A stretch of 64,000 nucleotides of DNA from a virus (IMGVR_UViG_3300034105_001128:12242-76241), one strand, 5' to 3'. Positions 18,591 to 64,000 are shown, counted from the stretch's first letter. The notes: generated by a model not told the origin, from the letters alone. Made by a program: numbers and translations.

Positions 18591-18909
18591 ACTTTCTGCC
18601 CTCTTTCTCTAACCACTCTTCTAAGGTTGTGCCTTTTTTCTTATACTTGCGTTGGGCTGCATTTCTTTCTCTATGCGACATTCCGCCAAAGATTCCGTGA
18701 AGCTCATTATTAATTATAGCCTCTTTAAGGCACTCTTGTCTAACCGGGCATGCCGGCCTACCGTCTTTACCTAAACAGATTGCTTTAGCTTTGTCAGCTA
18801 TGGGCTTATACAAAGCCTTATCTCGTGGAGGAAAAAATATCTCTGTGTCTTCTCCCTGACACTTGGCTTCATATCTCCAGGTCCATGCTGGATCATCGCT
18901 ATATCGCAT
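18577..18909 (-). CDS. whiB: WhiB-family transcription factor
   Basis: AKC..FFP..AKAIC..CPVRQECL..GIFGG...ER. Confidence 0.9.
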   Translation of the reverse strand: MRYSDDPAWTWRYEAKCQGEDTEIFFPPRDKALYKPIADKAKAICLGKDGRPACPVRQECLKEAIINNELHGIFGGMSHRERNAAQRKYKKKGTTLEEWLEKEGRKYGNT

Positions 18910-28520: not shown

Positions 28521-28778
28521 TTAATTCTGTGATGTGTTTAATTTTCTTAACCTCTTCCGATCATGTGGGGTTGTTCCCGCCCAAATCCCATCTAGGTTTG
28601 GGTATTGCATTGCGTACTTAAGGCAAGAGTCCTTAATCCAACAGTCTTCGCATACTTTTCTAGCCTCATCAATTATGAGCGGATCTTTATAATCCGGTGG
28701 AAAGAATAAGTCTGGATCCGCATCTAGACAAAGTTGGGTTCCGTTAAAAGGATTGAATTGGCTGGCCAAAAGATCCAT
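28521..28778 (-). CDS. whiB: Second WhiB-family protein
   Basis: LC..DPDLFFP..ARKVCEDC.IKDSCL..GIWAGTT...R; start reassigned to MDLLAS after GGAGG. Confidence 0.82.
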   Translation of the reverse strand: MDLLASQFNPFNGTQLCLDADPDLFFPPDYKDPLIIDEARKVCEDCWIKDSCLKYAMQYPNLDGIWAGTTPHDRKRLRKLNTSQN

Positions 28779-50967: not shown

Positions 50968-51207
50968 TTACTCCGTAGGTGTAGTTGGTTCTAAGATCCT
51001 TGAAAATGCTTTTGTATCTGGGTTATAGGTATCTCCAGGAAACACCATCTTGTTCTCATTAAAGAGATCTGTAACGTCTACTGTTACTGGATCGCTTAAA
51101 AATATAGCGCCTAAACGATCATCTGTATGTAGGACGTCTACCACTTGATTATCAATAACAAAAGCTATTTTAACTGGTGGGGTTGCTGGCTGTTGGTTTG
51201 TTGTCAT
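50968..51207 (-). CDS. Small hypothetical protein (paralog of 61216..61653)
   Basis: AFVID..V...AIFLSDP..VDVT shared motif. Confidence 0.6.
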   Translation of the reverse strand: MTTNQQPATPPVKIAFVIDNQVVDVLHTDDRLGAIFLSDPVTVDVTDLFNENKMVFPGDTYNPDTKAFSRILEPTTPTE

Positions 51208-51446
51208 TGTTCTTCCTTATAAGAGACTCGGACTTGTTCCCATTTGTGTAGTGGACATGATGCATTTGGTAGCTTTGTCTTTGCCGACATGAAGCAACCA
51301 CATTCTTTACAGTTTCCTGTAGGCAATAGCTCTGGACATGCTTTGCAAATAGCATAGCGATCCGCGGCCACTGTTTCAGGAACTCTACCAAGATTTTTAT
51401 TAAAAAGGTCCCACGGACGTGCAGGACGGTCGTACGGATCAGCCAT
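51204..51446 (-). CDS. Small Cys-rich metal-binding protein
   Basis: R..ICKACP...CKECGCF...CPL.KW. Confidence 0.7.
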   Translation of the reverse strand: MADPYDRPARPWDLFNKNLGRVPETVAADRYAICKACPELLPTGNCKECGCFMSAKTKLPNASCPLHKWEQVRVSYKEEQ

Positions 51447-51467: not shown

Positions 51468-53141
51468 CTATTCTACCACGTTTTGCAAGTCTAACGGAAT
51501 CGAATTAAAGTTATCTACTGTACTAGCTTGATTGGCTGTTCCCGAGTACGCCTTTATAATACCGAAGCCGTTACCCTTAGTCCCTGTGTTTGTTGCGGTA
51601 ACGGCCCCCAAAGAGGTAGAGCCATTATATGGGGTAACTGTTGCTGTGTTGCCCTCTGTAGACACTTGAATACTTGTAGGCTGAGAAGCCAACGCGCTTG
51701 AGGTGCTAGAAACCGTGTAGGCAGTACCACTGGCAGTAGAGTAGATAATTTGTAAATAATAATTGTTAGTAACATACCCACCGCTGCAGGTCTGGCAAGT
51801 AGACCCATAAGAGTCGCAGTTAGGGTACGTACCGCCACTAACAAATGCTGTAGTACTACCGCAATGCTCACAGCTAGTACCAGAGTTATTACAGGTTTGT
51901 GGAATTATACAATTTGTTCCACTTAAAGATCCGCCACTAGGGCAAGAATATGAGGTAACGTTTGTATAACATTGTGTACCTGAAAGGGAAGATCCAGGAA
52001 AAGCGCTACAACTATAGGAACTTGAGGTTGTGTAACAACCTGATCCGCTAACTGTTTGGCCTGAAGGACAGCTATAACCAGTTAAAACGCTTGCATAACA
52101 ATCTGTTCCGATTAAGCTTGAACCGGGATAAGCAGAACAACTGTAGGTATTGCTAACAGTTCCACAGTAACACGAATTTACTGATCTACCAATAGTGCTA
52201 CCAGGAGATGGCCCTACTTGTCCTGAAGAGCAGCTTAACCCGTCGCAGTTATAGCCAATTGAAGCAGTGTAATAAGTTCCTGAACAAGTTGCTGGGCCTA
52301 AGTATGGGCCAGCGTAGCGACCGCCGTAGCAATCGGTACCGTCTAGAACACCTTCAGTACAACTATAGGTTAGTGTATAGCACTGTGTGCTAAAGAAGGT
52401 ACCACTACAGGAGTATTGACTTTCACCACCTGGGCAATACCTGAAAGAAGTTGATGCGCCTACTGTACTACCATAAGTTGTTGTCGATCCTACTGTTGCA
52501 GCCCCTTGATTCTGAGATGTATAGGTAGGGGTTGCAGGCCCTGCGTATACGAGTGGGCCATTTACAAGTGTTGCGTTTCCTTGAAGAACTGCACTAGTAC
52601 TGCTTGTAGCAGGGTATGTTACTGGGCAGCTATATGTTCCAAAAGCAGGATTTGTACAAGTATTACAAGTAGTTTGATTGTGCCCATTACACACACAGTT
52701 ACATGGATAGGTAACGGTAGTATTAGTTTGATCACTAGTAAGGTGGGCGGCCCACCAAGATCCCGCAGATGTTACCCAGAATGCTACGCCAACACCGGCG
52801 TTAGGTATGCCAACAGATGTTGTCGCGTCTTTACTCAATAAATCTACATAAGACAGCGCCCCAGCAGTTCCAGAAGAAACTGCGTTGCTTGAAACAGCCA
52901 CAGAGCCATTAGCGGTCCAAGTACCAAAACGTGAAGCCCATGCAATATTAGATTCAGACGTGCCTAAGTTAGAGGTAGTTGTTCGTGTAAAAGTGTCGAC
53001 TGCCCCAACGGTAAACCATTGTTTCCACTCACCAGCAATTTTTACGTATGCGTGAGTAGCAGTTCTCCAAGTACCTGCAACTTTTACTCTAATTGCGGAT
53101 GTTTTTCTAAAGGCGCCGCTTACCCGTACTCTTCCAGGCAT
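51468..53141 (-). CDS. Cys-rich repeat protein, probably virion-associated
   Basis: Repeated YSC..G.SL.G..CY units inserted in a beta-rich domain; N-terminal (V/K)xGxW repeats. Confidence 0.7.
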   Translation of the reverse strand: MPGRVRVSGAFRKTSAIRVKVAGTWRTATHAYVKIAGEWKQWFTVGAVDTFTRTTTSNLGTSESNIAWASRFGTWTANGSVAVSSNAVSSGTAGALSYVDLLSKDATTSVGIPNAGVGVAFWVTSAGSWWAAHLTSDQTNTTVTYPCNCVCNGHNQTTCNTCTNPAFGTYSCPVTYPATSSTSAVLQGNATLVNGPLVYAGPATPTYTSQNQGAATVGSTTTYGSTVGASTSFRYCPGGESQYSCSGTFFSTQCYTLTYSCTEGVLDGTDCYGGRYAGPYLGPATCSGTYYTASIGYNCDGLSCSSGQVGPSPGSTIGRSVNSCYCGTVSNTYSCSAYPGSSLIGTDCYASVLTGYSCPSGQTVSGSGCYTTSSSYSCSAFPGSSLSGTQCYTNVTSYSCPSGGSLSGTNCIIPQTCNNSGTSCEHCGSTTAFVSGGTYPNCDSYGSTCQTCSGGYVTNNYYLQIIYSTASGTAYTVSSTSSALASQPTSIQVSTEGNTATVTPYNGSTSLGAVTATNTGTKGNGFGIIKAYSGTANQASTVDNFNSIPLDLQNVVE

Positions 53142-53836
53142 TATACGTATACAATCCAGATATCCCCGTCAATGCCCCCAGTAGGTGCAGCACTGGTAGA
53201 TGTCCAAATATTTCTGACTACTCCGGAGCTAGTTGATGCAGTTGTAACAGCACCGTTTGTTTGCCCAACGTATGATGATACTGGGGTAGACCAAAACGCC
53301 GCCGTACCACTGCTAGTTAATACCTGACCGTTAGTTCCAAGCCCAAGTGCGCCAAGAGAAGAACTGACTAGCGCATTGTATTCGGTACTATTTACATAGA
53401 GAACGTTATTTGTCCCTACTTTTGGAATACCAAGGTGGTTTACGTTAAATCCTAAAACGTTTGCTGAAGTATATGTCTCAAGAAGTGCAAGGGTTCCAGT
53501 ACCAGTTTTTAAAGATAGTCCTACGTTTGTAGCAGTAAGGACCTGACTACCGCCGGTCTTTATAACGTATGGTGAGTTTGTGCCGAGACCGTTTACAAGG
53601 CCGGCCTCAATATTTAGAAGGCGGGCCCCAAGTGTGCCCCAAGCGGTAGTAGCTGAACTCCATGTACCAGAGAAAGTGGAGACCAGAGGGCTAGTTCCAG
53701 TAGATGAAACACCAAGGGCTGTTTCAATTGCCCGCACCTCTTCTTGCAAGGAGTTAACGTTATCGGCAACGACGATGTCTACAAGGTCAGTACGTGCCGA
53801 ATAATCTCGGACTGTAGTTGGGTAACTGGCTACCAT
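53141..53836 (-). CDS. Tail-fibre-like structural protein
   Basis: D.V.A..VNSLQEE..AIE..LG; GTNGQVLT; PTGG.DGDIW. Confidence 0.6.
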   Translation of the reverse strand: MVASYPTTVRDYSARTDLVDIVVADNVNSLQEEVRAIETALGVSSTGTSPLVSTFSGTWSSATTAWGTLGARLLNIEAGLVNGLGTNSPYVIKTGGSQVLTATNVGLSLKTGTGTLALLETYTSANVLGFNVNHLGIPKVGTNNVLYVNSTEYNALVSSSLGALGLGTNGQVLTSSGTAAFWSTPVSSYVGQTNGAVTTASTSSGVVRNIWTSTSAAPTGGIDGDIWIVYV

Positions 53837-53911: not shown

Positions 53912-54577
53912 TTAGTATTTGCTGCTGTTAATATGGCAAATTTCAATCTCATTTACATTAACATGGCTTGGTAATGACCCTACCCAGTAAATAGATTCTG
54001 CCAGATCCTCTGCAGTCAATGCCTGGTCTCGTTTTTGTTCTTGAGTATCAATCGTTGCTGGGCAGATCTCTGTAATTTTAATGCCGAATTGTGGGAACTC
54101 AAGCCTCATAGTATCGATTAGGCCTCGCGCACCCCTCTTGGCGTTTGTATAGTTTCCTCCACCGCGATAGGGCACTTTACCACCAAAGGAAGTAATAAAG
54201 ACAATAGTTGGTGACTGTGATCTTTCCATACAAGGCACAAATAATTGGGATAAGTACATGGGCCCAGTGACGTTTATGTCATAGGCTTTTCTAAAGTTTT
54301 CTGGGGTCTCATGAATAATGTTGGTAGGTGCCGATCCACCACCAGCATTATTAACTAAAAGGTCTAGTGTTATATCCTTATACTTTTCAAAGAATATCTC
54401 TATTGCCTTAGAGTCTGTAACATCAAGCTGGTATACCTCAACGTTATCGGATACAAGCTCAGATACTTTAGAGAGGTTTCTTGAAACAGCAATGACCTTG
54501 TACCCATTTTCAGATAGGCGTTTGACTGTCGCTAATCCTACGCCTTTGCTTGCCCCAGTAACAATAGCTGTTTTCAA
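53912..54577 (-). CDS. Short-chain dehydrogenase/reductase
   Basis: TGASKGVG, LDVT, NNAG, YTNAK (YxxxK). Confidence 0.92.
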   Translation of the reverse strand: MKTAIVTGASKGVGLATVKRLSENGYKVIAVSRNLSKVSELVSDNVEVYQLDVTDSKAIEIFFEKYKDITLDLLVNNAGGGSAPTNIIHETPENFRKAYDINVTGPMYLSQLFVPCMERSQSPTIVFITSFGGKVPYRGGGNYTNAKRGARGLIDTMRLEFPQFGIKITEICPATIDTQEQKRDQALTAEDLAESIYWVGSLPSHVNVNEIEICHINSSKY

Positions 54578-55333
54578 TTACATACCTTGATTCTTATTAA
54601 GATCCATGTTGTTATGTATCCAATGACCAGGAATCATATATTTAAAACCAGACTTTACAACGTGTGCCGTATGAAAATATGGTGGAAATGCTGGAAATAT
54701 GATGACGCTATTTTCTTTTGGCTTTAATCCAAAATCAATTGCTTTATTTGCAACAGATACATCATAGTCTAGGTCTACAGCTGGTGCTGACCCCTTAGAA
54801 AAGCCGTCAGCACTAGTCCATCCGCCATCATAATCTTTTAATTGGAAAGAGATTTCTCCGCCTTCACAATCATCGTTTAGGTACATAACTAATGAATATC
54901 TTAGTGTTTTATCGCCATCTAACTGGTCAAAGTGTGCGCCCATGCCCACTCCAGTGTTGTACTTTTTTATATTAAAAGTTGGAAAAAGCCTTGGCTCGTC
55001 AAAATCACCTAAAGAAGAGGCGTAGTCTTTGCAAACGTTATACATTGTAGTCATAATAGCGTCGTAGATATATTTACTTTTTTCTGCTACTTCGGCTGAA
55101 TGCGGAGAAAAAATTGGACTAAGCTGGTTTATCGCATTAATATCAAAGGTCTTTGTTTCCCCGTAGATAAAATCTTTATCATTAGAGGCAGTCCAGATGT
55201 TCCAAACATTTACGCCTGACTCTGGGTATTGCTCAAGAGTATCTAGCTCTTTCCAAACTTTTTTAAAAGTATCAAAATCTTCAATAGCATCTGTATAGTA
55301 GTATGCTTTTGGGTCTAGAATTTCTCTATTCAT
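54578..55333 (-). CDS. 2OG-Fe(II) oxygenase, prolyl-4-hydroxylase-like
   Basis: HFD, YLNDD.EGGE, distal H, K. Confidence 0.85.
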   Translation of the reverse strand: MNREILDPKAYYYTDAIEDFDTFKKVWKELDTLEQYPESGVNVWNIWTASNDKDFIYGETKTFDINAINQLSPIFSPHSAEVAEKSKYIYDAIMTTMYNVCKDYASSLGDFDEPRLFPTFNIKKYNTGVGMGAHFDQLDGDKTLRYSLVMYLNDDCEGGEISFQLKDYDGGWTSADGFSKGSAPAVDLDYDVSVANKAIDFGLKPKENSVIIFPAFPPYFHTAHVVKSGFKYMIPGHWIHNNMDLNKNQGM

Positions 55334-55344
55334 CTGTCTCCCCC

Positions 55345-56004
55345 TTAGTATTTATTTTTTTCATAGTGGTCTTTTTCTTTAATAAATCCAACAAGAACGT
55401 ACCTTATTGGTCCATCCCCTACATGCTTGACCCCATGCTCATATTCTTCGTTTCCTGGAAAAAATAGCATAGTTCCTGGTTTAGGTTTTAACTTAATATC
55501 AAGTTTTGGAAAGAATATCTCGCCGTCTGCATAGTCATCATTAATGTATACAATTGTCGCGTACTTAATTGAGGGGTCCGTATGCTGGTCTGTGTGGGCT
55601 TTTAACTCAACACCAGGCTGCATTCTTTGAATTGTCGCAAGACCACTTAAAATTAGTTCTGGGTCAGCTTTGACTACCATTGAGTTTAGTCCATCATATA
55701 AAGGCCTATGGATCCCATGATGTAATATGTTAAAGTTTTTATCTTTCCAATTTTGAGTAATTTCAAACTTACCCTCAGCAACCAAATTCTCTACGTCATC
55801 TCTGCCAAATTTTTCCATGCAAAAGTACTTTAAGTTTGCGTGGTACTCTACTTCCCAATCTTCTTGAGAGGTACTATGGATAATATCCCAAAAAGTAGTT
55901 AGTTGGTCTTCTGATAAAAAGTTTTCAACAGAGAATAGTTCTGGAGTAATATCTGTAACTACATATCCACTATCTATTAGCTGTTGTTTAAAAGACTCAA
56001 TCAT
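55345..56004 (-). CDS. 2OG-Fe(II) oxygenase, prolyl-4-hydroxylase-like
   Basis: ENFLS, HTD, YINDDY.DGE, H, R. Confidence 0.88.
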   Translation of the reverse strand: MIESFKQQLIDSGYVVTDITPELFSVENFLSEDQLTTFWDIIHSTSQEDWEVEYHANLKYFCMEKFGRDDVENLVAEGKFEITQNWKDKNFNILHHGIHRPLYDGLNSMVVKADPELILSGLATIQRMQPGVELKAHTDQHTDPSIKYATIVYINDDYADGEIFFPKLDIKLKPKPGTMLFFPGNEEYEHGVKHVGDGPIRYVLVGFIKEKDHYEKNKY

Positions 56005-56752
56005 TTGCAATATCTTCTATTTTGTACTTATTTCCAGCAGCATCTAACTTCCAACCCTGCTTTAGAAGATCTTGCCACTCTGCTCGTTCAATCTCTTGCT
56101 GAGCTCTAGTAGCCTTCATTTCTTCGGCCCAAGCGTCTCTTACTTCTTGTGGGTAGTCTGACTCTTGTCGGTCATCCCAGAAAGATCCAATGGTGTATCT
56201 TACCCCACCTGTGATAAGGGTTACTTCGTGCATGTTATTAAACCCGCCGTCGAATACGGCAAGCATTCCAACTTCTGGCTTAATGGAGATGTTTTGTGTT
56301 GGGAACTGTAAAAGTCCCCCCTCAAAATCGTCATTAAGATACAGAAAGCCTGCGTAACGGCTTCTTGTAAACGCGCCTGAGTTTCCTTCGGCATCTGTGT
56401 TGTCGGAGTGGATTCTTGCGTATGCTCCTGGCTCCCACTTTTGTGTGTGGTACCCAATCTTACAAATTGTTTTTGGGTCAAGGTCGTGAACTGAAGCAAC
56501 TGCTTCTGGCATTACCTTTTCAATGTCTGAAAATATGGTTGGAGAAAGACCAGCGTCAATGACTTCTTGGTCATTATCTTGTGGCAAAACTGAAGAGTAT
56601 GACTCATAAAATGAAATAGGCATCCAAGAGATTGCCCCATTGGCTGCCTGAGCATCTAGGGCTTGAATCATTTTTTTGCAGTCTTCTTTGCTTATAAAGT
56701 TTTCATAAACAACTATGTCTTTTGTTAGTCTTTTTTTGTTTTCCAGGTTCAT
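55997..56752 (-). CDS. 2OG-Fe(II) oxygenase, prolyl-4-hydroxylase-like
   Basis: ENFIS, HSD, YLNDDFEGG, HEV, R. Confidence 0.88.
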   Translation of the reverse strand: MNLENKKRLTKDIVVYENFISKEDCKKMIQALDAQAANGAISWMPISFYESYSSVLPQDNDQEVIDAGLSPTIFSDIEKVMPEAVASVHDLDPKTICKIGYHTQKWEPGAYARIHSDNTDAEGNSGAFTRSRYAGFLYLNDDFEGGLLQFPTQNISIKPEVGMLAVFDGGFNNMHEVTLITGGVRYTIGSFWDDRQESDYPQEVRDAWAEEMKATRAQQEIERAEWQDLLKQGWKLDAAGNKYKIEDIAND

Positions 56753-56768
56753 TGTATTTTTACTCCAG

Positions 56769-57542
56769 TTAGCTATTTATAAGTGATTTATCTCCAGCGA
56801 TAAGCTTTTCTATTTCTTGTTCAACAAGTGCAAATTCTTCTTGAAACACCTCTGGGGTTCTGCCTTCTCCTAGAGCAGCAGGAGTTCCCGCAGCTATTAG
56901 GGCTTCTTTTAGTGTTTTTTCAATATCGTAATTTAGCACTGTGCACTGGAACCAATTTGCTACATAGCCATCTTTATCAATTAAGTACTTTTCAAAGTTT
57001 CCGCCCTGCATTGCGCCATTAGAAATAGGTTGATTAAGCCAAGGTGACAGGTAACCGTCTCTGTTTGGGATTCCCAATTCTTTTTGCTTTGCGGCGTAAG
57101 CATGCATTTGATCTTTAATCTCACGGTATAGCTCATGAGTTTCTTTTCTTGGCTGCCCCAACCCATTTACAGAATCATCACCTTTATACGGGCTCAATTC
57201 AGTAGCGCTCTTATTTGGGTTTGACGACACCATCTCTGAGAACTTAAAGGTGGTTCCATAAACCTCTTGTCCGTATTCTTGTGAGTCTAGCCCGCAGGTA
57301 ATGCCTTCAGACCACTTACCCTTAGTAACTCCTGGACCACAGAAGTCATTAGTAGGAATAGCAATAACTTGGAAATCATCTCCACCGTACTTATCTTGAA
57401 GCCATTGGAGAACTTCCATTTGATTAGCGTTGCCGCAACCAACTGTTGTATTAGCTAACAGAGTTACTTTACCCTTAAATTGCTCTAAAAACCCAGGGGT
57501 TCCCTCGGCCGAGTTAAGTGGTATATCATAGATAGATTTCAT
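56769..57542 (-). CDS. Cys-type glutathione peroxidase-like protein
   Basis: SIYDI, FKGKV.L.NTTVGCG, PTNDF, NFEKYLIDKDG. Confidence 0.8.
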   Translation of the reverse strand: MKSIYDIPLNSAEGTPGFLEQFKGKVTLLANTTVGCGNANQMEVLQWLQDKYGGDDFQVIAIPTNDFCGPGVTKGKWSEGITCGLDSQEYGQEVYGTTFKFSEMVSSNPNKSATELSPYKGDDSVNGLGQPRKETHELYREIKDQMHAYAAKQKELGIPNRDGYLSPWLNQPISNGAMQGGNFEKYLIDKDGYVANWFQCTVLNYDIEKTLKEALIAAGTPAALGEGRTPEVFQEEFALVEQEIEKLIAGDKSLINS

Positions 57543-57562
57543 AGTTATATTATAGCCTGTCC

Positions 57563-58249
57563 TTACGGTTGTTTGTCACCTGTATGCTTTGTTATTTCCC
57601 AAAAGAATGGGCATGTAAATCTTAAGCCACTCTTGATCTCAGTAACTCCGTGGATATAGTTTTTATCCCCTGGGAAGAAATAAGCAGCGCCCTTTTTAGG
57701 CTTAAACTGTACACCCTGCAAAGGAAAGTATAGCTCACCGCCCTCGTAGTCGTCATTTAAATAGAACAAACTTGAGAGGTCATAGTTTGGAAAATCGTTA
57801 GGTGTTCCAGCATCAGGGCCCTCATGAAGCTCTTTATCAGCATGGGGTTTTTGAAACTGCCCAGGAAGCCACTTAACAATAGTTGTGCCCGTAGGGTGAA
57901 CCTCTACCTTATAAAAGTCTTCAATAATAGGCTTTAGTCTTTGAAATAAGCCTGCAATTATTGGGGATATCTTTGGGTCATTTTTATCTAAGGTAGGCTG
58001 GGTTGCAACCCTATCTTTCCAGTAATCTGAGTCGTAAGTGACCGTACCATTCTCATTTGTATGGCTTTGAGTTACATCCCAGATTGTTAGAGACTTAGCC
58101 GCTTTTTCTAAAAACTCTATCTCTTCTTGAGTCATAAAGTTCTCTAGCTCAACAATCATGTCTTTGCTGTCCCCAAACCAGCCGGATGGGGTCATAGACG
58201 GCGTTCTTTTTACTACAGTATATGAATCTTTGTTTTGTTCCATGTTCAT
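57563..58249 (-). CDS. 2OG-Fe(II) oxygenase, prolyl-4-hydroxylase-like
   Basis: ENFMT, HAD, YLNDDYEGGELYF, HGV, R. Confidence 0.88.
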   Translation of the reverse strand: MNMEQNKDSYTVVKRTPSMTPSGWFGDSKDMIVELENFMTQEEIEFLEKAAKSLTIWDVTQSHTNENGTVTYDSDYWKDRVATQPTLDKNDPKISPIIAGLFQRLKPIIEDFYKVEVHPTGTTIVKWLPGQFQKPHADKELHEGPDAGTPNDFPNYDLSSLFYLNDDYEGGELYFPLQGVQFKPKKGAAYFFPGDKNYIHGVTEIKSGLRFTCPFFWEITKHTGDKQP

Positions 58250-58962
58250 AGCATATTCCTTTTCGTTTTATCTACTACCCCTAATTTTAATGCTTTTACT
58301 TCATGAGAGCCTTGGGACTCTTCTTTTTCATTTACAGCGTCTCTATACCAGTCTGTCCATTTTCCAGCAGAGTTTATTGCCTGTGCGGCATTCCCATAGG
58401 ATATGTTTGCGTTTAGTCTTTTTCTATCTGGGTCTTGGTACTCAACAATCTCAATATCTGTCCCATTTAAATTTGACAAAGATATGGGGATAATTGTGGC
58501 AACTGGAGTTCCCGCTTTAATAACTACTCGCTTATTTGCAGTCTTTGCCTTAATAGCTAAAGGCAAAGGATTATCATAAAAAGAAGTACTAATTAAAGAC
58601 GCCATTGTTTCAAACTCATCACTAAAATAATTTACCGGGTTAATGGTAAAAATACTGACGTCCTGATCTGTTCTAAAAACTAGGCCGGTATTTAGGCTTA
58701 CAGAGGACTGCCCTCTTCCAGAATAGGATCCTTCTGGACTAAATACTTGAACATGATCTGGGGTTTGGTCATTTATACCATCCCAAATAAACTCAATATC
58801 TTCTAGACAAGACAGGCCCCAACCAATTACATTTGACTGGGTTACTGGAAAACACCTATACGCATGGTTCTCTGATGTTGCCTCCATCCAGTCTCTTTTA
58901 ATTGACATGGGTTGAATATCAAACATGGCACCTTGTGTTTTTTCAACTGAGATATTAAACAT
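58246..58962 (-). CDS. Hypothetical beta-rich protein (DUF6065-like)
   Basis: RDWM...HAYRC.P...N..GW; GTP..TIIP. Confidence 0.5.
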   Translation of the reverse strand: MFNISVEKTQGAMFDIQPMSIKRDWMEATSENHAYRCFPVTQSNVIGWGLSCLEDIEFIWDGINDQTPDHVQVFSPEGSYSGRGQSSVSLNTGLVFRTDQDVSIFTINPVNYFSDEFETMASLISTSFYDNPLPLAIKAKTANKRVVIKAGTPVATIIPISLSNLNGTDIEIVEYQDPDRKRLNANISYGNAAQAINSAGKWTDWYRDAVNEKEESQGSHEVKALKLGVVDKTKRNML

Positions 58963-59618
58963 TAGTCTGCGTCTGCGCTATACATCTCTGGGGTGTGAAA
59001 CTTTTTGCTGTAGTCAAGCATTGTCACAATAGAATACTTAGTTCCAGAAGTTACGGGCATTGCTTGATGTGGATACATAAAGTTTGATGGGAAGATAAAT
59101 AGGTCTCCAGCATCTGCTTTAACCTTTAAATTTTGTAATCTAAAGTAAAGCTCCCCACCTTCGTAGTCATCATTTGGATATGCAACTAAAGATACAGTAC
59201 AGTTATAAGAAAAACCATGGTCGTGGTGCTCCATAAAGTGCTGTCCTGGGCCGTACTTAATAAAGTTAAAGGCTTCCCAGTACTTTAGGTTGTTAATATT
59301 ATACATCCTTGAGTAGTCTTGAACCGCAGGCAACTTTACATCGTATAGGTCTTGCCACAAAGATTGAAGATTTAAACTAACCTGACTCATGTCATTTTCA
59401 ATATCTGTCTTTTTAAATTTAAAATCATTGCAGTCACGATATTCTGGCATAAGTTGTTTATACCCAACATATGCTGGTTGCCAAGCATACCCAGTCGTAT
59501 CTCCTTCTGGCTTAAGGTTAGCCTCAATTCGACCTACAACATTGATATCCTTCTTGATTACGCCTTTATAGCAAAAAATGCCATTACCTAAATCAACTTT
59601 TTCTGTCCATGTTTGCAT
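58962..59618 (-). CDS. 2OG-Fe(II) oxygenase, prolyl-4-hydroxylase-like
   Basis: HHD, NDDYEGGELYF, FPSN..YPH, GTKY; start MQTW after AGGGAG. Confidence 0.88.
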   Translation of the reverse strand: MQTWTEKVDLGNGIFCYKGVIKKDINVVGRIEANLKPEGDTTGYAWQPAYVGYKQLMPEYRDCNDFKFKKTDIENDMSQVSLNLQSLWQDLYDVKLPAVQDYSRMYNINNLKYWEAFNFIKYGPGQHFMEHHDHGFSYNCTVSLVAYPNDDYEGGELYFRLQNLKVKADAGDLFIFPSNFMYPHQAMPVTSGTKYSIVTMLDYSKKFHTPEMYSADAD

Positions 59619-59628
59619 TATATTCTCC

Positions 59629-60396
59629 CTATTTGTAGTCTCTTTTTGACCAAACTTTGTTTTGGTATACTCCGCCATCAGGCTGACGGTAAAATTGCAT
59701 GTTATTCACTAGTTTATCATACATTGTAGATTGATCTGGAATCTCTATTTTGTGTTCCCAGTTTTCTCTTTTAAACGGAAGAACCTGCAGGTACGGGGTT
59801 CCTTCGGGTATTGTACCTTCCCAACCTTCTGGAAGAAAAAACGGAAAAGTTCCAAGGAAATGAAGCTTATCTGAGTCTACTACGCCAGTAGTATTTAAAA
59901 ATGGCAGGTCAAACCTATTCATTGGGGTCATAAACAGCGCACTGTATCCTTCTGGGAGCTCTAACCCCCAAGGAGAACTCCAAGCAAAGTGGGTTTGATA
60001 GTACCCCTTTGGGTGTTCAAACTGTGGCATAGGAGGTCGTTGAGTACAAAAATCTTTATACTTAGGGTCATCAATTTTTACGTCTATGATTCCCTGGTCA
60101 TTTTTATAAAAAACTAAGTCGCACGGTGTTTTAAAAATGTATCCAGTTGTAAAGGAGTCCATAAGAGCAGGGCACGCCTTCCACGTAGGAATCTTTCCAT
60201 AGTCATCAGTTGTGCCTTCTTTAGGGAACGGGCAGACTTCTTTTGGCGCCTTGTAGTATTCCCCGTTTGGCATTTTTGCAAACCTATCTGCATCTTTGTA
60301 CCAATCTGGCATCTGTGTTTGTGTTGGCGCTGGGACAGAAATATGCTTCTTATCTATCCATGGGCGAAAAGATCTAAATATAGCGACTAAAGACAT
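59629..60396 (-). CDS. Hypothetical beta-rich protein (DUF6065-like)
   Basis: PDWYK, KACP..D...GY, P.GYS.LF..P.N, GVVDSD, GTP..Q..PFKRE.W. Confidence 0.55.
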   Translation of the reverse strand: MSLVAIFRSFRPWIDKKHISVPAPTQTQMPDWYKDADRFAKMPNGEYYKAPKEVCPFPKEGTTDDYGKIPTWKACPALMDSFTTGYIFKTPCDLVFYKNDQGIIDVKIDDPKYKDFCTQRPPMPQFEHPKGYYQTHFAWSSPWGLELPEGYSALFMTPMNRFDLPFLNTTGVVDSDKLHFLGTFPFFLPEGWEGTIPEGTPYLQVLPFKRENWEHKIEIPDQSTMYDKLVNNMQFYRQPDGGVYQNKVWSKRDYK

Positions 60397-61109
60397 TACT
60401 TGTGCCCCAATTCATTGATATCTGTCATAACAACAACGCAGTATTTTGTCCCCGAAACCATTGGCAGGGATGCATGCTCATAAATATAGTTTGATGGGAA
60501 GACTGCAATGTCCCCAACTTTTGGCTTATAAACTAAGTTATCAAGTCTTGGGAACTTTATGTCTCCACCTTCATAATCATCGTTAATATAGATGACGGCA
60601 GACACTGTACAGTTGTAGGCAGGTCCATGGTCTGCGTGGATATTAAAGTGGGTTCCCGACCCGTCGTATTTTACAAAGTTAAATGCCTCATAATACACAA
60701 CATTAATGCCCCAATATTTTGCATAATCGTCTATGCAGTATTTAAGTTTTTGATATATTTCTTCGTGCAGATCTATTAGTTCTGAGTTAGTTTCGTCCCT
60801 AGGTCCAAGGTTTTCTTGCTTATATTTAAAATCTACGCAGTCTCTGGCCTTTTTAATTGGTACATCAGAATTAGTTACTTGGGCTTCCGACCACTTATAT
60901 TTGCTACCAGTAGACAAATTGGACTCAAGTACGTTAATGTATCTTTTAGAATCATCCAAAGAAAAAGTATTATGATATACATTTAGCCCTAGTCCTGGAT
61001 TGCTAATAGTGATGTCGCTTTGTGGCATTAGTCTTGCAACCCTATCCGAAGCTGTCTCAGACCTATCCTTTGTAAACCAAGGATTTTCATTTTCGTCGTA
61101 TATACCCAT
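60396..61109 (-). CDS. 2OG-Fe(II) oxygenase, prolyl-4-hydroxylase-like
   Basis: HAD, YINDDYEGG, FPSN..YEH, GTKY. Confidence 0.88.
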   Translation of the reverse strand: MGIYDENENPWFTKDRSETASDRVARLMPQSDITISNPGLGLNVYHNTFSLDDSKRYINVLESNLSTGSKYKWSEAQVTNSDVPIKKARDCVDFKYKQENLGPRDETNSELIDLHEEIYQKLKYCIDDYAKYWGINVVYYEAFNFVKYDGSGTHFNIHADHGPAYNCTVSAVIYINDDYEGGDIKFPRLDNLVYKPKVGDIAVFPSNYIYEHASLPMVSGTKYCVVVMTDINELGHK

Positions 61110-61215
61110 AAGATTTCCTATCTTTAAACGTTATAGCCCTATTATAGCGTAAACTGGAGGATTTAATATTTGGGTGCGGCGAGTGTTGCCACTCATTTAG
61201 GGGGTTGCCCTATTT

Positions 61216-61653
61216 TTATGGCGCTACGTAGTCGGGATTTTTTGGATTTTGCGGGTGCCACTCTGTCAGCCTAGCTATCTCTGAAACAGTCCTATTTTTT
61301 ATGATAAACTTTGTACCATCAAAAGATGCGTTTGGTGAGACAACATGGTGCCCATAAGGATACTCAGTTAAGTTTACCACAGTAGGGTTACTTAGTAGGA
61401 TTGCCGCAAAATATTCAGACGTTTGAAATATTTCAATGTCGCCGTTATCTTTTGTTATCTCAAGAGTAGGGCCATCGTGAGACGTATACTCGCTAGAAAT
61501 ATCACGTATCCCAGTGTTTTTTGTAAACAGATTAGCACCTTCTTCTGTGACTACAAAATCATAGACGCATTCTCCGTCAATAACAAAAGTTAATGGTGCC
61601 CCCCGTAACTTATCTCTATCACGGACATAAGTAATATCTAGCTCGTTAATCAT
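61216..61653 (-). CDS. Hypothetical protein (paralog of 50968..51207)
   Basis: TFVIDGE.V...AAILLSNP.VVNLT. Confidence 0.6.
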   Translation of the reverse strand: MINELDITYVRDRDKLRGAPLTFVIDGECVYDFVVTEEGANLFTKNTGIRDISSEYTSHDGPTLEITKDNGDIEIFQTSEYFAAILLSNPTVVNLTEYPYGHHVVSPNASFDGTKFIIKNRTVSEIARLTEWHPQNPKNPDYVAP

Positions 61654-61681
61654 AATGCCTCTTTTCTTATTTTATAGATCA

Positions 61682-62692
61682 TTAGCATTGACCACCAGAT
61701 GTGAAGGATGAGGTACAGGCCCCAACATAGCCACAACCAGGAGTTCCATAATAGTAAACATCTGAGCCACCACACTTATTTGGCGCACTTACTGGGAAGT
61801 AAGGTGGGAAGAATGGCGGGAAGAATGGGAATGATGGCGGGAAGAATGGCGGGAAGAACGGCGGGAAGAATGGAAAGAATGGTGGGAAGAATGGTGGGAA
61901 GAATGGGAAGAATGGAAAGAAGGGTGGGAAGAATGGCGGGAAGAATGGGAAGAACGGTGGGAAGAATGGTGGGAAGAACGGGAAGAATGGAAAGAACGGA
62001 GGAAAAAATGGTGGAAAGAATGGAAAGAACGGCGGGAAGAATGGTGGAAAGAATGGAAAGAATGGAAAGAATGGTGGGAAGAATGGCGGGAAGAACGGAG
62101 CAAGTGTGGTGATTGATCCAGAGGCGGAGGATGCAATTGAGGTTCCATTAGCATTAGTAGCTGTAACTGTATATGTCTGAGAAGTTGATGCGGTATCAGC
62201 AATAACAATAGGAGAAGTAGATCCTGTTCCAGAAGTACCATCAGAGCCTGTTACGGTATAGCTAGTAATGGTGCTACCGCCAGTGGCTGGTGCTGAGAAA
62301 GCAATTGAGTTTTGATTAACACCAGCAGTAGGGGTTGGGGCAGACATGGTTGCAGGAACTGTTGTAGCTGTAATTGAACTTGAAGCAGATGAAGCTGCAG
62401 ATGTTCCGGCAGCATTAGTAGCTGTAACGGTAAATGTGTAGGCTGTGGCAGATTGAAGTCCAGACACTGTAATTGGAGAAGATGCGCCAGTTCCAGTATA
62501 TCCGCCAGGAGATGAAGTTACAGTAAATGATGTAGCGGCCGGGGATAGCGCAGGCAAAGAAAAGGTAACTGTCGCTGCGCCATTGTTAAACGCTCTGCCT
62601 GTCCCTACGTTTGTAGCAGATACACTTGTTGGAGCCAATGGCTCTAGAAAGTCATTTGATGCAGATGAACGTCTACCGGTCTTCTTAGCCAT
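61682..62692 (-). CDS. Two-FN3-domain protein with Pro/Phe tract and Cys-rich C-terminus
   Basis: FN3 signatures GL....YTFTVTATN..G.S..S (twice), then (P)PFF repeats, then 4-Cys tail. Confidence 0.85.
   Translation of the reverse strand: MAKKTGRRSSASNDFLEPLAPTSVSATNVGTGRAFNNGAATVTFSLPALSPAATSFTVTSSPGGYTGTGASSPITVSGLQSATAYTFTVTATNAAGTSAASSASSSITATTVPATMSAPTPTAGVNQNSIAFSAPATGGSTITSYTVTGSDGTSGTGSTSPIVIADTASTSQTYTVTATNANGTSIASSASGSITTLAPFFPPFFPPFFPFFPFFPPFFPPFFPFFPPFFPPFFPFFPFFPPFFPPFFPFFPPFFPPFFPFFPFFPPFFPPFFPFFPPFFPPFFPPSFPFFPPFFPPYFPVSAPNKCGGSDVYYYGTPGCGYVGACTSSFTSGGQC
61793..62098 (-). repeat. Coding repeat encoding ~102 aa of PFF/PPFF units
   Basis: Only Pro and Phe except one Ser and one Tyr; mixed synonymous codons. 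Confidence 0.95.
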
Positions 62693-62707: not shown

Positions 62708-64000
62708 TTACGCTGTTAGATCGCCGTATACAACCCATGTATTTGCTGCTCTCTTAAAGAGAGTTGCAGATGACCAAGTTGTACGAAGTTTTAAGCCAGG
62801 TGTTGCATTTACTGTTGTTGTTCCTGGTGTTACTGCAGCAATTGTTACCTGTCCCGCTCCAGTTTGAAGAATATCAATAGATGTTCCGATTGGGTAGTTT
62901 AGAGTAGCATCTACAGGAATTGATATTGTTACACCAGTTGCTGAAGATACCTCAATTAATGAATCTCTTTCAGTAAGGGCTGACAAAGTATATGCTGCTG
63001 TCTTTTGAATAATTGGTGTACGAGAAGGAGTTCCTTCTTTTGTCTGTGTACCGTCTGTAAATGCTACGCCAGAAAGTGATGGAGTTGCGATTACTGAAAT
63101 TTCATTTCCGCTTACAGAAATATTTGTTCCTGCTGTGATTGTTCCTGAACCTGAGAACTGGAATACATCAATGTTATCTGTTCCAACAACAAATGTTGCA
63201 GGGTCTGCAACTACTTGAATCCAGCCAGTTCCAGCGTTTGTTCCATCTTGTACGAATATGTATGCACCTGGAATCTCTGATGCTTCATCACAATATGTAC
63301 AACGAGTAAGAACATAAGGTGTTGAAATAGATCCCATATTTGAGACGTAGTATCTACCATTTTGAGCCTTATTAGTTTGATTCTTTACAAGAATACCTTT
63401 TCCAACTGCCCAACCTGATGCTCCACCTGATTCTGCAGGAAATACTCCGTTTGTATTGTGTGTAAGAGTTGCGCCTACTCCAGCTGTACCATTGCTGTAT
63501 GTAGCATCAATGTTTGCTGTAGTTGCTCCAAGAACTTGTGGCTTTGCAATAACTCCTGATGCTGTGTTGTCAACATACTGCTTTGTTGCAGCATGCAGTG
63601 AAGATGATGGGTCAGCATGCAAAGTGATGGCCCCTGTCATTGTTCCACCAGCAAGTGCTAACTTAAGATCAAGTGCTGTTTGTGTAGCAGTAGAAACAGG
63701 CTTGTTTGAATCTGCTGTATTGTCAACATTTCCAAGTCCAACATCTGATTTTGTGATTCCAGTAGGTGTATTAATTACTGGAGAGGTTAAAGTTTTGTTA
63801 GTTAGAGTTTCAGTTTTAGAAGCAGTTGACTTAGCATCTAGCTGTGTTTGAATGCTTGAAGTAACACCATCAAGATATCCAATTTCAACATCTGAAACAT
63901 TAGCAACAGTTGCTTGCTTTCCATCTAATTGTGTTTGAATTGCGCCTGTGACTCCATCTAAATATCCAGCTTCTATAGCAGATACTGTTGAAGATATTGC
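62708..64000 (-). CDS. Tail-fibre-like protein, 5' end outside window
   Basis: Frame open from 64000; E.GYLDGVT..IQTQLD x2, LTNKTLTSP, KSDVGLGNVDNT, AATKQYVD, ILVKNQT..QNG.Y, GAGQVT...W..YGDL. Confidence 0.8.
   Translation of the reverse strand, partial: AISSTVSAIEAGYLDGVTGAIQTQLDGKQATVANVSDVEIGYLDGVTSSIQTQLDAKSTASKTETLTNKTLTSPVINTPTGITKSDVGLGNVDNTADSNKPVSTATQTALDLKLALAGGTMTGAITLHADPSSSLHAATKQYVDNTASGVIAKPQVLGATTANIDATYSNGTAGVGATLTHNTNGVFPAESGGASGWAVGKGILVKNQTNKAQNGRYYVSNMGSISTPYVLTRCTYCDEASEIPGAYIFVQDGTNAGTGWIQVVADPATFVVGTDNIDVFQFSGSGTITAGTNISVSGNEISVIATPSLSGVAFTDGTQTKEGTPSRTPIIQKTAAYTLSALTERDSLIEVSSATGVTISIPVDATLNYPIGTSIDILQTGAGQVTIAAVTPGTTTVNATPGLKLRTTWSSATLFKRAANTWVVYGDLTA

Follow-up and report, generated by a model that had tools for sequence, protein, structure and literature searches.

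The gene content of the window, that is, the whole stretch of 64,000 nt that was analyzed, placed a cassette at 62692-53912 on the minus strand. The source is an uncultured lake phage, probably with an actinobacterial host. Every gene listed in a preliminary description of this DNA was recovered on the minus strand at unchanged coordinates. The features, including the two flanking genes, are as follows.

Gene content of the locus

62708..64000, minus strand: tail-fibre protein gene (phrog_8745 and phrog_8780 matches), 5' end beyond the window edge
61682..62692, minus strand: two-FN3/tract protein, 336 aa, candidate substrate (PF00041)
61796..62098, minus strand: DNA of the Pro/Phe tract (75-nt unit, 3.9 copies)
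61216..61653, minus strand: small orphan protein, 145 aa, between the tract gene and oxygenase 1
60396..61109, minus strand: oxygenase 1 (ox1), 237 aa, P4H-like 2OG-Fe(II) type, Lys type (PF13640, E 8e-10)
59629..60396, minus strand: probable DUF6065-type protein A, 255 aa (phrog_7084, E 6e-33)
58962..59678, minus strand: oxygenase 2, 238 aa, Lys type (PF13640, E 7e-13; HHD at residue 151)
58246..58962, minus strand: DUF6065 protein B, 238 aa (PF19541, 88 bits)
57563..58249, minus strand: oxygenase 3, 228 aa, Arg type (PF13640, E 6e-9; HAD at residue 136)
56769..57542, minus strand: divergent GPx-fold protein, 257 aa (PF00255, 37 bits)
55997..56752, minus strand: oxygenase 4, 251 aa, Arg type (PF13640, E 5e-8; charged helical C-terminal extension)
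55345..56010, minus strand: oxygenase 5, 221 aa, Arg type (PF13640, E 2e-10)
54578..55333, minus strand: oxygenase 6, 251 aa, Lys type (PF13640, E 1e-7; ~33-residue insertion in the beta-helix core)
53912..54577, minus strand: SDR, 221 aa, last cassette gene (PF00106, E 7e-42)
53141..53836, minus strand: fibre-like protein, 231 aa, downstream neighbour (anchor gene for the gain/loss test)

The intergenic distances within the cassette ranged from -50 to +106 nt, and thus it is probably a single transcription unit; none of the RNA runs searched for the stretch contains it. The cassette island is located in the structural module, not in the replication module. The upstream tail-fibre gene, which ends 15 nt from the tract gene, matched its two families (tail fibre / minor tail) with E ~1e-20, in agreement with the earlier view that the block sits among virion genes. 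The two genes on the downstream side match no family and are called fibre-like by composition only; for the 231-aa protein, the searches returned no family match.

The tract protein is composed of two FN3-like repeats (approximately residues 20-198), the (P)PFF tract, and a tail of 37 residues, 4 of them Cys. It matched PF00041 with 31.7 bits (cut-off 25), consistent with fibronectin type III membership, and its two repeats shared 51% identity (E 1e-8). The near-pure Pro/Phe stretch, previously put at ~102 residues, was confirmed as 101 aa (residues 199-299; 54 F, 45 P, 1 S, and 1 Y) encoded by repeat units with 86% identity. The other two reading frames across the tract DNA are open, but they are repeat shadows, and no second Pro/Phe tract was found on the 76-kb contig. 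Chance cannot plausibly account for 101 residues of 98% Pro/Phe kept in frame between flanking folded domains.

The Pro/Phe tract recurs in >119 viral contigs. All orthologues of the tract protein (62-100% identity, 75 loci) retain it, with a length of 20 to 166 residues. Lake metagenome contigs accumulate and terminate at the tract DNA, where 3-nt in-frame deletions are also seen. Elsewhere, tract proteins range from 120 to ~1000 aa and end in a Cys-rich tail, in ...PPxFK, or in a Hint-like domain. No paper describing the tract was found. The neighbouring 145-aa protein had no match in Pfam, PHROG, NCBIfam, or Atlas; its homologues were found in only 5-7 related loci, and it is unrelated to the product of the 149-aa gene that fills the same slot in 31 other loci.

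As suggested in the preliminary description, the system could alternatively mature a multi-core, RiPP-like peptide. The tract would then be no structural stalk but a precursor, and the modified peptide would be excised from it and either set free or attached. In keeping with such processing, a self-cleaving domain of the Hint/intein-like type comes after the tract in relatives (Pfam Hint below the cut-off; C[IV]xxDT present), three islands have a radical SAM-SPASM gene, and many short tract proteins terminate exactly at ...PPxFK. However, the tract in this phage is embedded in a 336-aa protein between the FN3 domains and the 4-Cys tail, its gene is within the tail-fibre block, and neither a Hint domain nor a protease, leader-type region, or exporter/transporter was found in the block. 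Moreover, certain tracts are internal linkers within 900-1000-aa proteins. The processed-peptide suggestion therefore gained little from the analysis, and we consider it improbable.

Oxygenases and accompanying proteins

The six genes with an HxD...H arrangement were verified as oxygenases, since all matched PF13640 with 32.9-49.8 bits, above the cut-off of 27, a result confirmed on the whole contig. In all six, the iron-binding HxD...H triad is intact, and the basic residue expected to bind the 2OG C5 carboxylate, 10 residues beyond the distal His, is Lys in three and Arg in three. The ligand residues of ox1 are H158-x-D160, H212, and K222, and H158, D160, and H212 (ox1 numbering) are invariant among the six paralogues and 27 orthologues. 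The paralogues are mutually 21-39% identical (39% for oxygenases 1 and 2), each has orthologues up to ~90% identical, and the order ox1-DUF-ox2-DUF-ox3-(GPx)-ox4-ox5-ox6-SDR was seen in dozens of loci.

The best PDB matches of the oxygenase profile were Bacillus anthracis P4H (7e-11), P3H1, and PBCV-1 P4H. The model of ox1, the sole oxygenase modelled, had a pLDDT of 89.9, and its Foldseek matches in the PDB included PHD2 (1.8e-10), Cr-P4H (9e-10), PPHD (2.6e-9), and vCPH (1.4e-8); prolyl hydroxylases made up 49 of the best 50 structural matches. The enzymes are thus P4H-like by sequence and, as judged from the ox1 model, by fold (a double-stranded beta-helix), which is consistent with the initial assignment. 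PF13640 also covers non-prolyl, non-protein oxygenases such as PiuC, and weak Tet-like similarity was present.

Collagen-type P4Hs (Bacillus anthracis 5hv0/3itq; Chlamydomonas 2jig/3gze; human P3H1 8k0e), which provided the best sequence matches, share the fold and the Fe and 2OG ligands and act on extended polyproline-II-type repeats. However, the identity is only ~14-18%, their substrates are (GPP)n or (SP)n and not Pro/Phe, and the phage cassette has no peptide-substrate-binding domain or PDI-type partner. The HIF/EF-Tu-type enzymes (PHD2, Pseudomonas PPHD 4iw3, and Dictyostelium PhyA 6t8m) were the closest to the ox1 model (TM 0.6-0.67 over ~200 of 237 residues), but their target is a single proline within a folded protein or a signalling protein, and there is no sign of a signalling role here.

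Both of the proteins previously described as related and beta-rich are present, and this description can be corrected to DUF6065 proteins with a dUTPase-like fold. Protein B matched PF19541 (cut-off 26.6 bits) and has an invariant Cys37. Protein A matched phrog_7084, and its nearest Atlas clusters were DUF6065, mostly viral; since it was placed solely via these look-alikes, its membership is probable and less direct than that of protein B, with which it aligns at 19% identity. The model of protein B, of middling quality (pLDDT 69), aligned with dUTPase 5y5o at a VIA-align Z of 10.6 and an rmsd of 2.5 Å over 116 residues. The best 8 matches were dUTPases, as were 13 of the 14 with Z of at least 8, the sole exception being 8qdo at rank 9 (HCMV tegument protein UL82). 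According to this model, DUF6065 has a dUTPase-like fold. No Pfam dUTPase match to the DUF6065 proteins was obtained at E <= 0.01, and the identity of protein B to dUTPases in the structural alignments was 10-14%. Protein B was not filed as a dUTPase, because the fold fits but the Pfam match is lacking. DUF6065 is also present, beside fibre genes, in related phages having neither oxygenases nor tract.

The dUTPase-like fold would suit a scheme in which the oxygenases and these proteins hydroxylate bases or nucleotides in a Tet/JBP-like manner. A weak Tet_JBP match of oxygenase 3, a match of the oxygenase profile to Naegleria Tet (1e-5), and a DpdA-like transglycosylase encoded elsewhere on the contig point the same way. 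Nevertheless, the matches to Tet fall far short of those to P4H, that of oxygenase 3 being under the Pfam cut-off, and the structural neighbours of ox1 are prolyl hydroxylases. In addition, DUF6065 has no dUTPase sequence match and adjoins fibre genes where oxygenases are absent, and the island belongs to the structural module. Modification of nucleotides or DNA is accordingly regarded as highly improbable.

The GPx-like and SDR genes noted earlier were both detected. The GPx-like protein matched PF00255 (cut-off 27 bits); its Cys aligned to the peroxidatic Cys of 3e0u and the Asn is also retained, the tetrad Gln and Trp are replaced by Asp and Gly (TNDF vs CNQF; GNF vs WNF), and the domain is split by an insertion of ~110 residues. 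All NCBIfam GPx models scored far under their cut-offs on this protein. The SDR matched PF00106 with 143.7 bits and shows TGASKGVG and YTNAK motifs in its translation; no NCBIfam equivalog model reached its cut-off. Among roughly 190 related loci, GPx-like genes were found in ~15-26 (in the cassette order in 10 loci) and SDR genes in ~31-45, the SDR closing the cassette in ~45. The two proteins are optional accessories and not core components, and the proposal that they provide the redox support of the system was not supported.

Linkage of tract and oxygenases across phages

In the forward test, loci were fetched solely by a back-translated PPFF DNA pattern. An in-frame tract ORF was present in 117 of the 119 loci found, and segments homologous to the tail-fibre gene in 72. 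Of these loci, 78 had no less than 3 kb of sequence on the downstream side, and 64 of them encoded a homologous oxygenase on the same strand inside that 3-kb interval; dereplication left 67 clusters, 54 of them with such an oxygenase. At 6 kb the count was 36 of 42. Two of the exceptions had 7 oxygenases elsewhere on the contig; certain tracts with no oxygenase in view were internal linkers in 900-aa proteins or lay on short contigs. In the reverse test, loci with >2.5 kb of upstream sequence were fetched solely by ox1 similarity, and a tract ORF was located upstream in all 51 (46 within 2.5 kb and 5 within 5.6 kb). The adjacency is on the same strand, often at 10-800 nt. In five long contigs carrying tract and oxygenases, the tail sheath had no similarity to that of this phage or was only 28-29% identical. 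The co-occurrence test proposed in the preliminary description was therefore strongly positive in both directions, including contigs with little or no sheath similarity. These counts, which come mostly from related lake phages, are inflated by shared descent, and the linkage is genomic evidence only, an association and not proof of substrate.

Relatives of the downstream anchor gene at 92% and 66% identity were accompanied by the oxygenase array, and its distant relatives, where the sequence upstream reached at least 5 kb, had neither tract nor oxygenases. The FN3-anchored test yielded no tract-less orthologue, and thus joint loss could not be shown by it. Among the orthologues, 20-residue tracts were associated with 1-2 oxygenases and tracts of at least 45 residues with 5-8, a hint of a dose relation between tract length and oxygenase number; Spearman rho was 0.31 (p = 0.002). 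The islands in relatives add further families that modify peptides, Asp/Asn beta-hydroxylase and radical SAM-SPASM.

The cyanomyoviruses S-SCSM1 and S-MbCM7 have 2OG oxygenase arrays, and the PP[FY]F tract was found nowhere in their genomes. The arrays of T4-like cyanophages sit by tail-fibre genes, and that of S-SCSM1 directly adjoins them. Such arrays can therefore function without this substrate, which favors the explanation that the array is a fibre-proximal accessory island acting on other virion proteins, host proteins (EF-Tu, ribosomal proteins), or small-molecule secondary metabolites, the tract gene being merely a conserved neighbour. Similarly, the tandem array of Syn9, with 10 dioxygenases and a dUTPase-fold protein, was read as a metabolite biosynthesis system (Iyer, Abhiman, de Souza, Aravind 2010, NAR 38:5261, PMC2938197), and DNA repair or a 2OG drain was proposed by Sullivan et al. 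2010. The occurrence of DUF6065 apart from oxygenases and tract, and of genes from the TauD family, whose members typically have small-molecule substrates, in some islands, points in the same direction. Against this explanation, the tight same-strand adjacency spans unrelated tract-protein architectures and contigs with no detectable sheath similarity, tract and array are jointly absent in distant anchor-gene relatives, and the closest solved structures are protein prolyl hydroxylases and not metabolite enzymes. It is rather unlikely, but it deserves more weight than the processed-peptide and nucleotide schemes.

Proposed function and known systems

On balance, the cassette probably hydroxylates the prolines of the Pro/Phe tract; the tract would be the substrate, proline the modified residue, and the protein a virion component. 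The locus would be a conserved phage cassette that modifies a fibre-associated protein after translation. Its FN3-FN3-(P)PFF protein would be produced late, with the tail-fibre genes, and some or all of the six P4H-like Fe(II)/2OG oxygenases would hydroxylate its tract. The enzymes, which diverged anciently and are conserved individually across phages, probably differ in ring position or context (F-P-P, P-P-F, F-P-F). Hydroxylation may render a highly hydrophobic stalk of polyproline type stiffer or easier to dissolve, or ready it for additional tailoring. Both DUF6065 proteins, with their conserved Cys, may be non-catalytic or otherwise uncharacterized helpers that accompany fibre regions, and of the optional add-ons, the GPx-like protein and the SDR, the latter might oxidize the new hydroxyl or serve redox upkeep. 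What has been demonstrated is the gene content together with the catalytic residues, the folds, and the linkage in genomes. Six to eleven distinct oxygenases exceed the need of simple prolyl hydroxylation, which argues against this reading, and oxidation of Phe by the cassette would be pure speculation.

The closest known system is the viral P4H of PBCV-1 with its Pro-rich repeats. The PBCV-1 P4H acts on the virus's own Pro-rich repeats; as reportedly described by Eriksson and colleagues in 1999, this virus of a eukaryotic alga has one enzyme and repeats of the (PAPK)n type. PBCV-1 vCPH (PDB 5c5t) matched the six-enzyme profile at 5e-8, in addition to its match to the ox1 model. In both cases a virus encodes a P4H-type 2OG oxygenase together with its own Pro-rich repeat protein, the pair here being a candidate one. 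Unlike PBCV-1, the present systems belong to bacteriophages and combine six to eleven distinct paralogues with a polymer of Pro and Phe and with DUF6065 partners, in a cassette whose order is fixed.

The Syn9 array includes a dUTPase-fold protein that, matched by description only, fits the DUF6065 proteins here (dUTPase-like fold, invariant Cys37), and additionally two tryptophan halogenases and a member of the JmjC/MINA group; its authors named no substrate protein and proposed secondary-metabolite synthesis (PMC2938197). For linked bacterial hydroxylases, collagen-like and tail-collar proteins were the predicted substrates (Iyer et al. 2010, PMC2938197).

In summary, the tract and the enzymes travel together in many phages, and phage oxygenases with a role that has been uncertain since 2010 thus have, in the tract, a candidate substrate amenable to testing.

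Organization of the cassette and properties of its enzymes

All elements named in the preliminary description, a protein with a Pro/Phe tract, six 2OG-Fe(II) oxygenases (ox1 to ox6, numbered in gene order from the tract gene) and their companion genes, were found on the minus strand. The tract gene and four companions are as follows.

61682-62692, minus strand: tract protein (336 aa); one FN3 domain exceeds the Pfam cut-off, and a further FN3-like repeat shares 51% identity with it
59629-60396, minus strand: DUF6065-type A
58246-58962, minus strand: DUF6065 B
56769-57542, minus strand: GPx-like protein
53912-54577, minus strand: SDR

The tract gene is followed by a 145-aa orphan, ox1, DUF6065-type A, ox2, DUF6065 B, ox3, the GPx-like gene, ox4, ox5, ox6 and the SDR gene, in that order. 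The cassette is likely to be one transcription unit because the intergenic gaps range only from -50 to +106 nt; a scan for consensus sigma-70 promoters and terminators scored no better than on shuffled sequence. The orphan has neither a family match nor an Atlas look-alike, and does not resemble the 149-aa gene that fills this slot elsewhere. The block had been described as lying among virion genes, which holds for the upstream neighbour, a tail-fibre protein, but does not extend to the two downstream genes, which have no family match. The 557-aa product of 51468-53141 (minus strand), for which no family was found, has a very high content of Cys, Ser, Thr, Gly and Tyr and repeated 'YSCS...GT.CY' units; it probably forms the tip of a fibre or adhesin. 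An 80-aa Cys-motif protein (51204-51446, minus strand) belongs to DUF6171 (phrog_13558), a family seen bordering the oxygenase island in nine other loci.

Residues 199-299 of the tract protein comprise 54 Phe, 45 Pro, 1 Ser and 1 Tyr, and are followed by a C-terminal 37-residue tail with four Cys. The DNA of the tract consists of 3.9 copies of a 75-nt unit with 86% identity, and the two further open frames in this DNA are by-products of the repeat. Contigs from lake metagenomes of several studies matched the island at 99-100%. In four lake metagenomes, positions 61622-62215 were covered 20-70 times as deeply as the flanks and assemblies are interrupted there, an effect of the similar tracts that many phages of the sample share. 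One-codon deletions within the tract were seen at 61892 and 61935 in 2-3 runs, and the tract length varied among close relatives with the reading frame kept, which is consistent with a translated repeat of variable length. In the lake community, the tract is both abundant and polymorphic in length. The PPxF units resemble PR-39, a proline-rich antimicrobial peptide of mammals, but this was treated as no more than an analogy. A literature search with incomplete coverage found no paper on such Pro/Phe tracts or on DUF6065.

All six oxygenases scored above the PF13640 cut-off. The HxD...H motif is invariant among them, and the position ten residues past the distal His is occupied by Lys in three and by Arg in the other three. 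When a profile of the six was compared with solved structures, the prolyl 4-hydroxylase (P4H) of Bacillus anthracis (7e-11), human P3H1 and the PBCV-1 P4H were matched, followed by Tet-like and PiuC proteins. The AlphaFold model of ox1 (33 sequences; pLDDT 90) gave prolyl hydroxylases as 49 of the top 50 Foldseek matches, and its neighbours included PHD2, Chlamydomonas P4H, Pseudomonas PPHD, Dictyostelium PhyA and the chlorovirus enzyme. Given this ranking, in which Tet-like proteins come behind the prolyl hydroxylases, nucleotide modification by the oxygenases appears very improbable. The names 'ferrochelatase', 'DNA endonuclease' and 'endonuclease V' that PHROG gives to these oxygenase families were disregarded as carried-over annotation. 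When ox1 (33-row alignment) was co-folded with tract residues 196-240 and Fe, no answer was obtained (score 0.00), which bears neither way.

The paralogues share only 21-39% identity, each of the six has orthologues in other phages with up to about 90% identity, and the order ox1-DUF-ox2-DUF-ox3-(GPx)-ox4-ox5-ox6-SDR was found in dozens of loci. Taken together, these sequence comparisons indicate that the oxygenases are old, separately maintained functions and not recent duplicates.

Linkage of the tract and the oxygenases in other phages

The co-occurrence of the tract and the oxygenases, proposed as a check in the preliminary description, was examined in both directions. In the forward direction, a back-translated FFPPFFPPFFP pattern retrieved at least 119 stretches from IMG/VR, and the matches listed formed 98 clusters at 85% identity, with an in-frame tract ORF in 117 of the 119 pattern loci listed. 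Among these matches and counting loci with at least 3 kb of downstream sequence, a homologous oxygenase was found within 3 kb downstream on the same strand in 64 of 78 loci (54 of 67 clusters); at 6 kb the count among the matches listed was 36 of 42 loci. The gap between tract and oxygenase was often just 10-800 nt. Five exceptions were examined, two of which had seven oxygenases elsewhere on the contig, and three were fragments of 13-31% completeness. In the reverse direction, 80 loci were fetched by similarity to ox1 alone, and all 51 with more than 2.5 kb of upstream sequence carried an upstream tract ORF on the same strand, within 2.5 kb in 46. The co-occurrence was thus borne out both ways; most of the loci come from related lake phages, so that the counts are not independent events.

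The association was further examined through flanking and structural genes. The tail sheaths of five long contigs with tract and oxygenases had no similarity to that of this phage, or only 28-29% identity. Close relatives (92% and 66% identity) of the downstream 231-aa gene (53141-53836, minus strand) were accompanied by the array, and about 12 distant relatives whose contigs extend at least 5 kb upstream had neither array nor tract. Among orthologues of the FN3 part, a tract of 20 residues was accompanied by 1-2 oxygenases and tracts of at least 45 residues by 5-8; overall, tract length was correlated with oxygenase number (Spearman rho 0.31, p = 0.002), a trend for which lineage may account. 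The FN3-anchored search found no tract-less orthologue, which shows conserved synteny only.

The tract proteins occurred in several forms, namely 120-aa proteins ending in ...PPxFK, FN3-tract-Cys-tail proteins, proteins with a Hint-like domain after the tract, and proteins of 900-1000 aa. A Cys-initiated Hint/intein-like domain (C[IV]xxDT...) directly follows the tract in eight relatives (L007, L030, L040, L054, L076, L083, L084 and L114), where the Pfam matches to Hint_2, Intein_splicing and PT-HINT were below the cut-offs. Self-cleavage in these relatives would expose the tract as a new C-terminus. The alternative that the tract is a processed, RiPP-like peptide is improbable.

The central proposal was that the tract is a substrate of the P4H-like enzymes. 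The two-way linkage and the P4H-like fold stand behind it; the substrate role itself is the best available reading and is slightly favoured, which makes the tract a candidate substrate.

DUF6065 and optional genes of the island

The preliminary description had noted two related beta-rich proteins. They do share a PHROG; DUF6065 B is assigned by Pfam, and DUF6065-type A by its Atlas look-alikes, which are DUF6065 clusters, mostly viral. The DUF6065 model (pLDDT 69) was aligned to dUTPases by VIA-align with Z of about 10 and an rmsd of 2.5 A over 116 residues. The top 8 matches were dUTPases, as were 13 of the 14 with Z of at least 8, the exception being a herpesvirus tegument protein. Foldseek gave weak rows only (E about 4e-3), the fold being recovered with VIA-align, and the sequence had no match to the dUTPase family. 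One Cys is invariant in DUF6065.

Over about 190 loci, the recurrent families of the island were the oxygenases, with 694 genes, the two DUF6065 types, found in 121 and 108 loci, and the SDR, found by the cluster analysis in 31. GPx-like genes, a 149-aa unknown and genes of the Asp/Asn beta-hydroxylase and TauD families were rarer, as was a radical SAM-SPASM gene (three loci). DUF6065-like pairs were also found beside fibre genes in six loci (L202, L207, L208, L211, L213 and L214), about 2.4 kb downstream of a homologue of the gene at 53141-53836, with no oxygenase or Pro/Phe tract in view. DUF6065 is therefore not an obligate partner of the oxygenases and has its own role near fibre genes.

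Because the GPx-like and SDR genes are rarer than the oxygenases and DUF6065, they are optional to the cassette. The GPx-like protein has the peroxidatic Cys and lacks the Gln and Trp of the tetrad. The redox-support role suggested for both is possible but unsupported; the SDR could equally oxidize a newly made hydroxyl group. In L080 (9174-10184, minus strand) and two similar loci, the radical SAM-SPASM gene separates the first oxygenase from the tract gene. The usual role of radical SAM-SPASM enzymes is peptide cross-linking.

The phage, its likely host and proposed functions of the array

The contig, an IMG/VR viral record of 76 kb of which the window covers 64 kb, has a CheckV completeness of about 78%. 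The structural genes in the window are of the myovirus type and include those for the tail sheath, a baseplate wedge and a tape-measure/peptidase protein; PolA, DnaB, a helicase and a DpdA-like transglycosylase are encoded as well. By tail sheath, this phage is closest among isolates to the BRock group of Streptomyces phages (32-33% identity), and this stretch is nearly unchanged in lake-water metagenomes of many studies. At least 16 independent runs contain the phage, and the runs listed for it include no RNA run. Two WhiB-family genes lie in the window and a third copy on the contig outside it (PF02467, E 1e-18 to 8e-14 over the three).

18658-18879, minus strand: WhiB-family gene (PF02467)
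28548-28736, minus strand: WhiB-family gene (PF02467)

Freshwater actinobacteria are the probable host of this phage, judging from the WhiB genes, the resemblance of its tail sheath to that of Streptomyces phages and its origin in lake water. A pattern scan of genome contigs gave 42 stretches, of which only about 12 had real in-frame tracts, all on MAG contigs with mixed taxonomic labels that are probably mis-binned phage; the cultured-isolate matches were without an in-frame tract, and no host was identified by the scan. Isolated phages gave no match to the block by megablast or to the tract protein by tblastn, in searches where the low-complexity filter of BLAST masks the tract and from which close records may be absent. 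The DpdA-like/queuine tRNA-ribosyltransferase gene (489 aa; 1252-2721, minus strand; phrog_887, E 5e-56) is distant from the oxygenase island and suggests 7-deazaguanine modification of the phage DNA. Nearly all other genes lie on the strand opposite to a 901-aa ORF (10633-13338, plus strand), which lacks a PHROG match and coincides with a local sign change of GC skew.

In aquatic phages, few unexplained accessory genes are as common as arrays of 2OG-Fe(II) oxygenases. To our knowledge, none of the functions proposed for them has been tested. The proposals, from 2007-2010 on, include DNA repair, 2OG drain and metabolite synthesis (the latter by Iyer et al. 2010, PMC2938197). Oxygenase arrays are present in the T4-like cyanophages S-SCSM1 and S-MbCM7; in S-SCSM1 (MK867354.2, 211799-224263), six annotated 2OG-Fe(II) oxygenase genes flank virion tail-fibre and short-tail-fibre genes. 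No PP[FY]F tract was found anywhere in either genome, and more distant arrays must therefore act on other targets. That the present array, too, acts on other targets while being linked to the tract gene is possible, though not favoured. PBCV-1 is a known case of a virus that encodes a prolyl hydroxylase together with a Pro-rich substrate for it, whereas here the substrate is a candidate; the likeness to Syn9 lies in a phage dioxygenase array with a dUTPase-fold protein in both.

A more far-reaching and rather doubtful proposal is that many lake phages carry a fibre-borne Pro/aromatic (PPxF)n stalk that is rewritten by the oxygenase battery into an adhesive or rigid adsorption appendage, a new kind of biopolymer and the phage counterpart of extensins and mussel foot proteins. 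The specialized oxygenases would act at several positions to give, for example, 3- and 4-hydroxyproline, dihydroxyproline or hydroxylated aromatic side chains, and the modified (PPxF)n would then perhaps be cross-linked or glycosylated.

In this work, one array subfamily was tied gene by gene, in both search directions, to a simple, synthesizable candidate substrate. If the stalk proposal is true, a long-sought function of tandem 2OG-oxygenase arrays in phages would be revealed. If the tract is confirmed as the substrate, virus-encoded protein hydroxylation would extend from giant algal viruses to bacteriophages, the (PPxF)n tract would represent a new class of virion repeat, and at least six related hydroxylases, possibly with differing regio-selectivities on one polymer, would be of value for biocatalysis and biomaterials.
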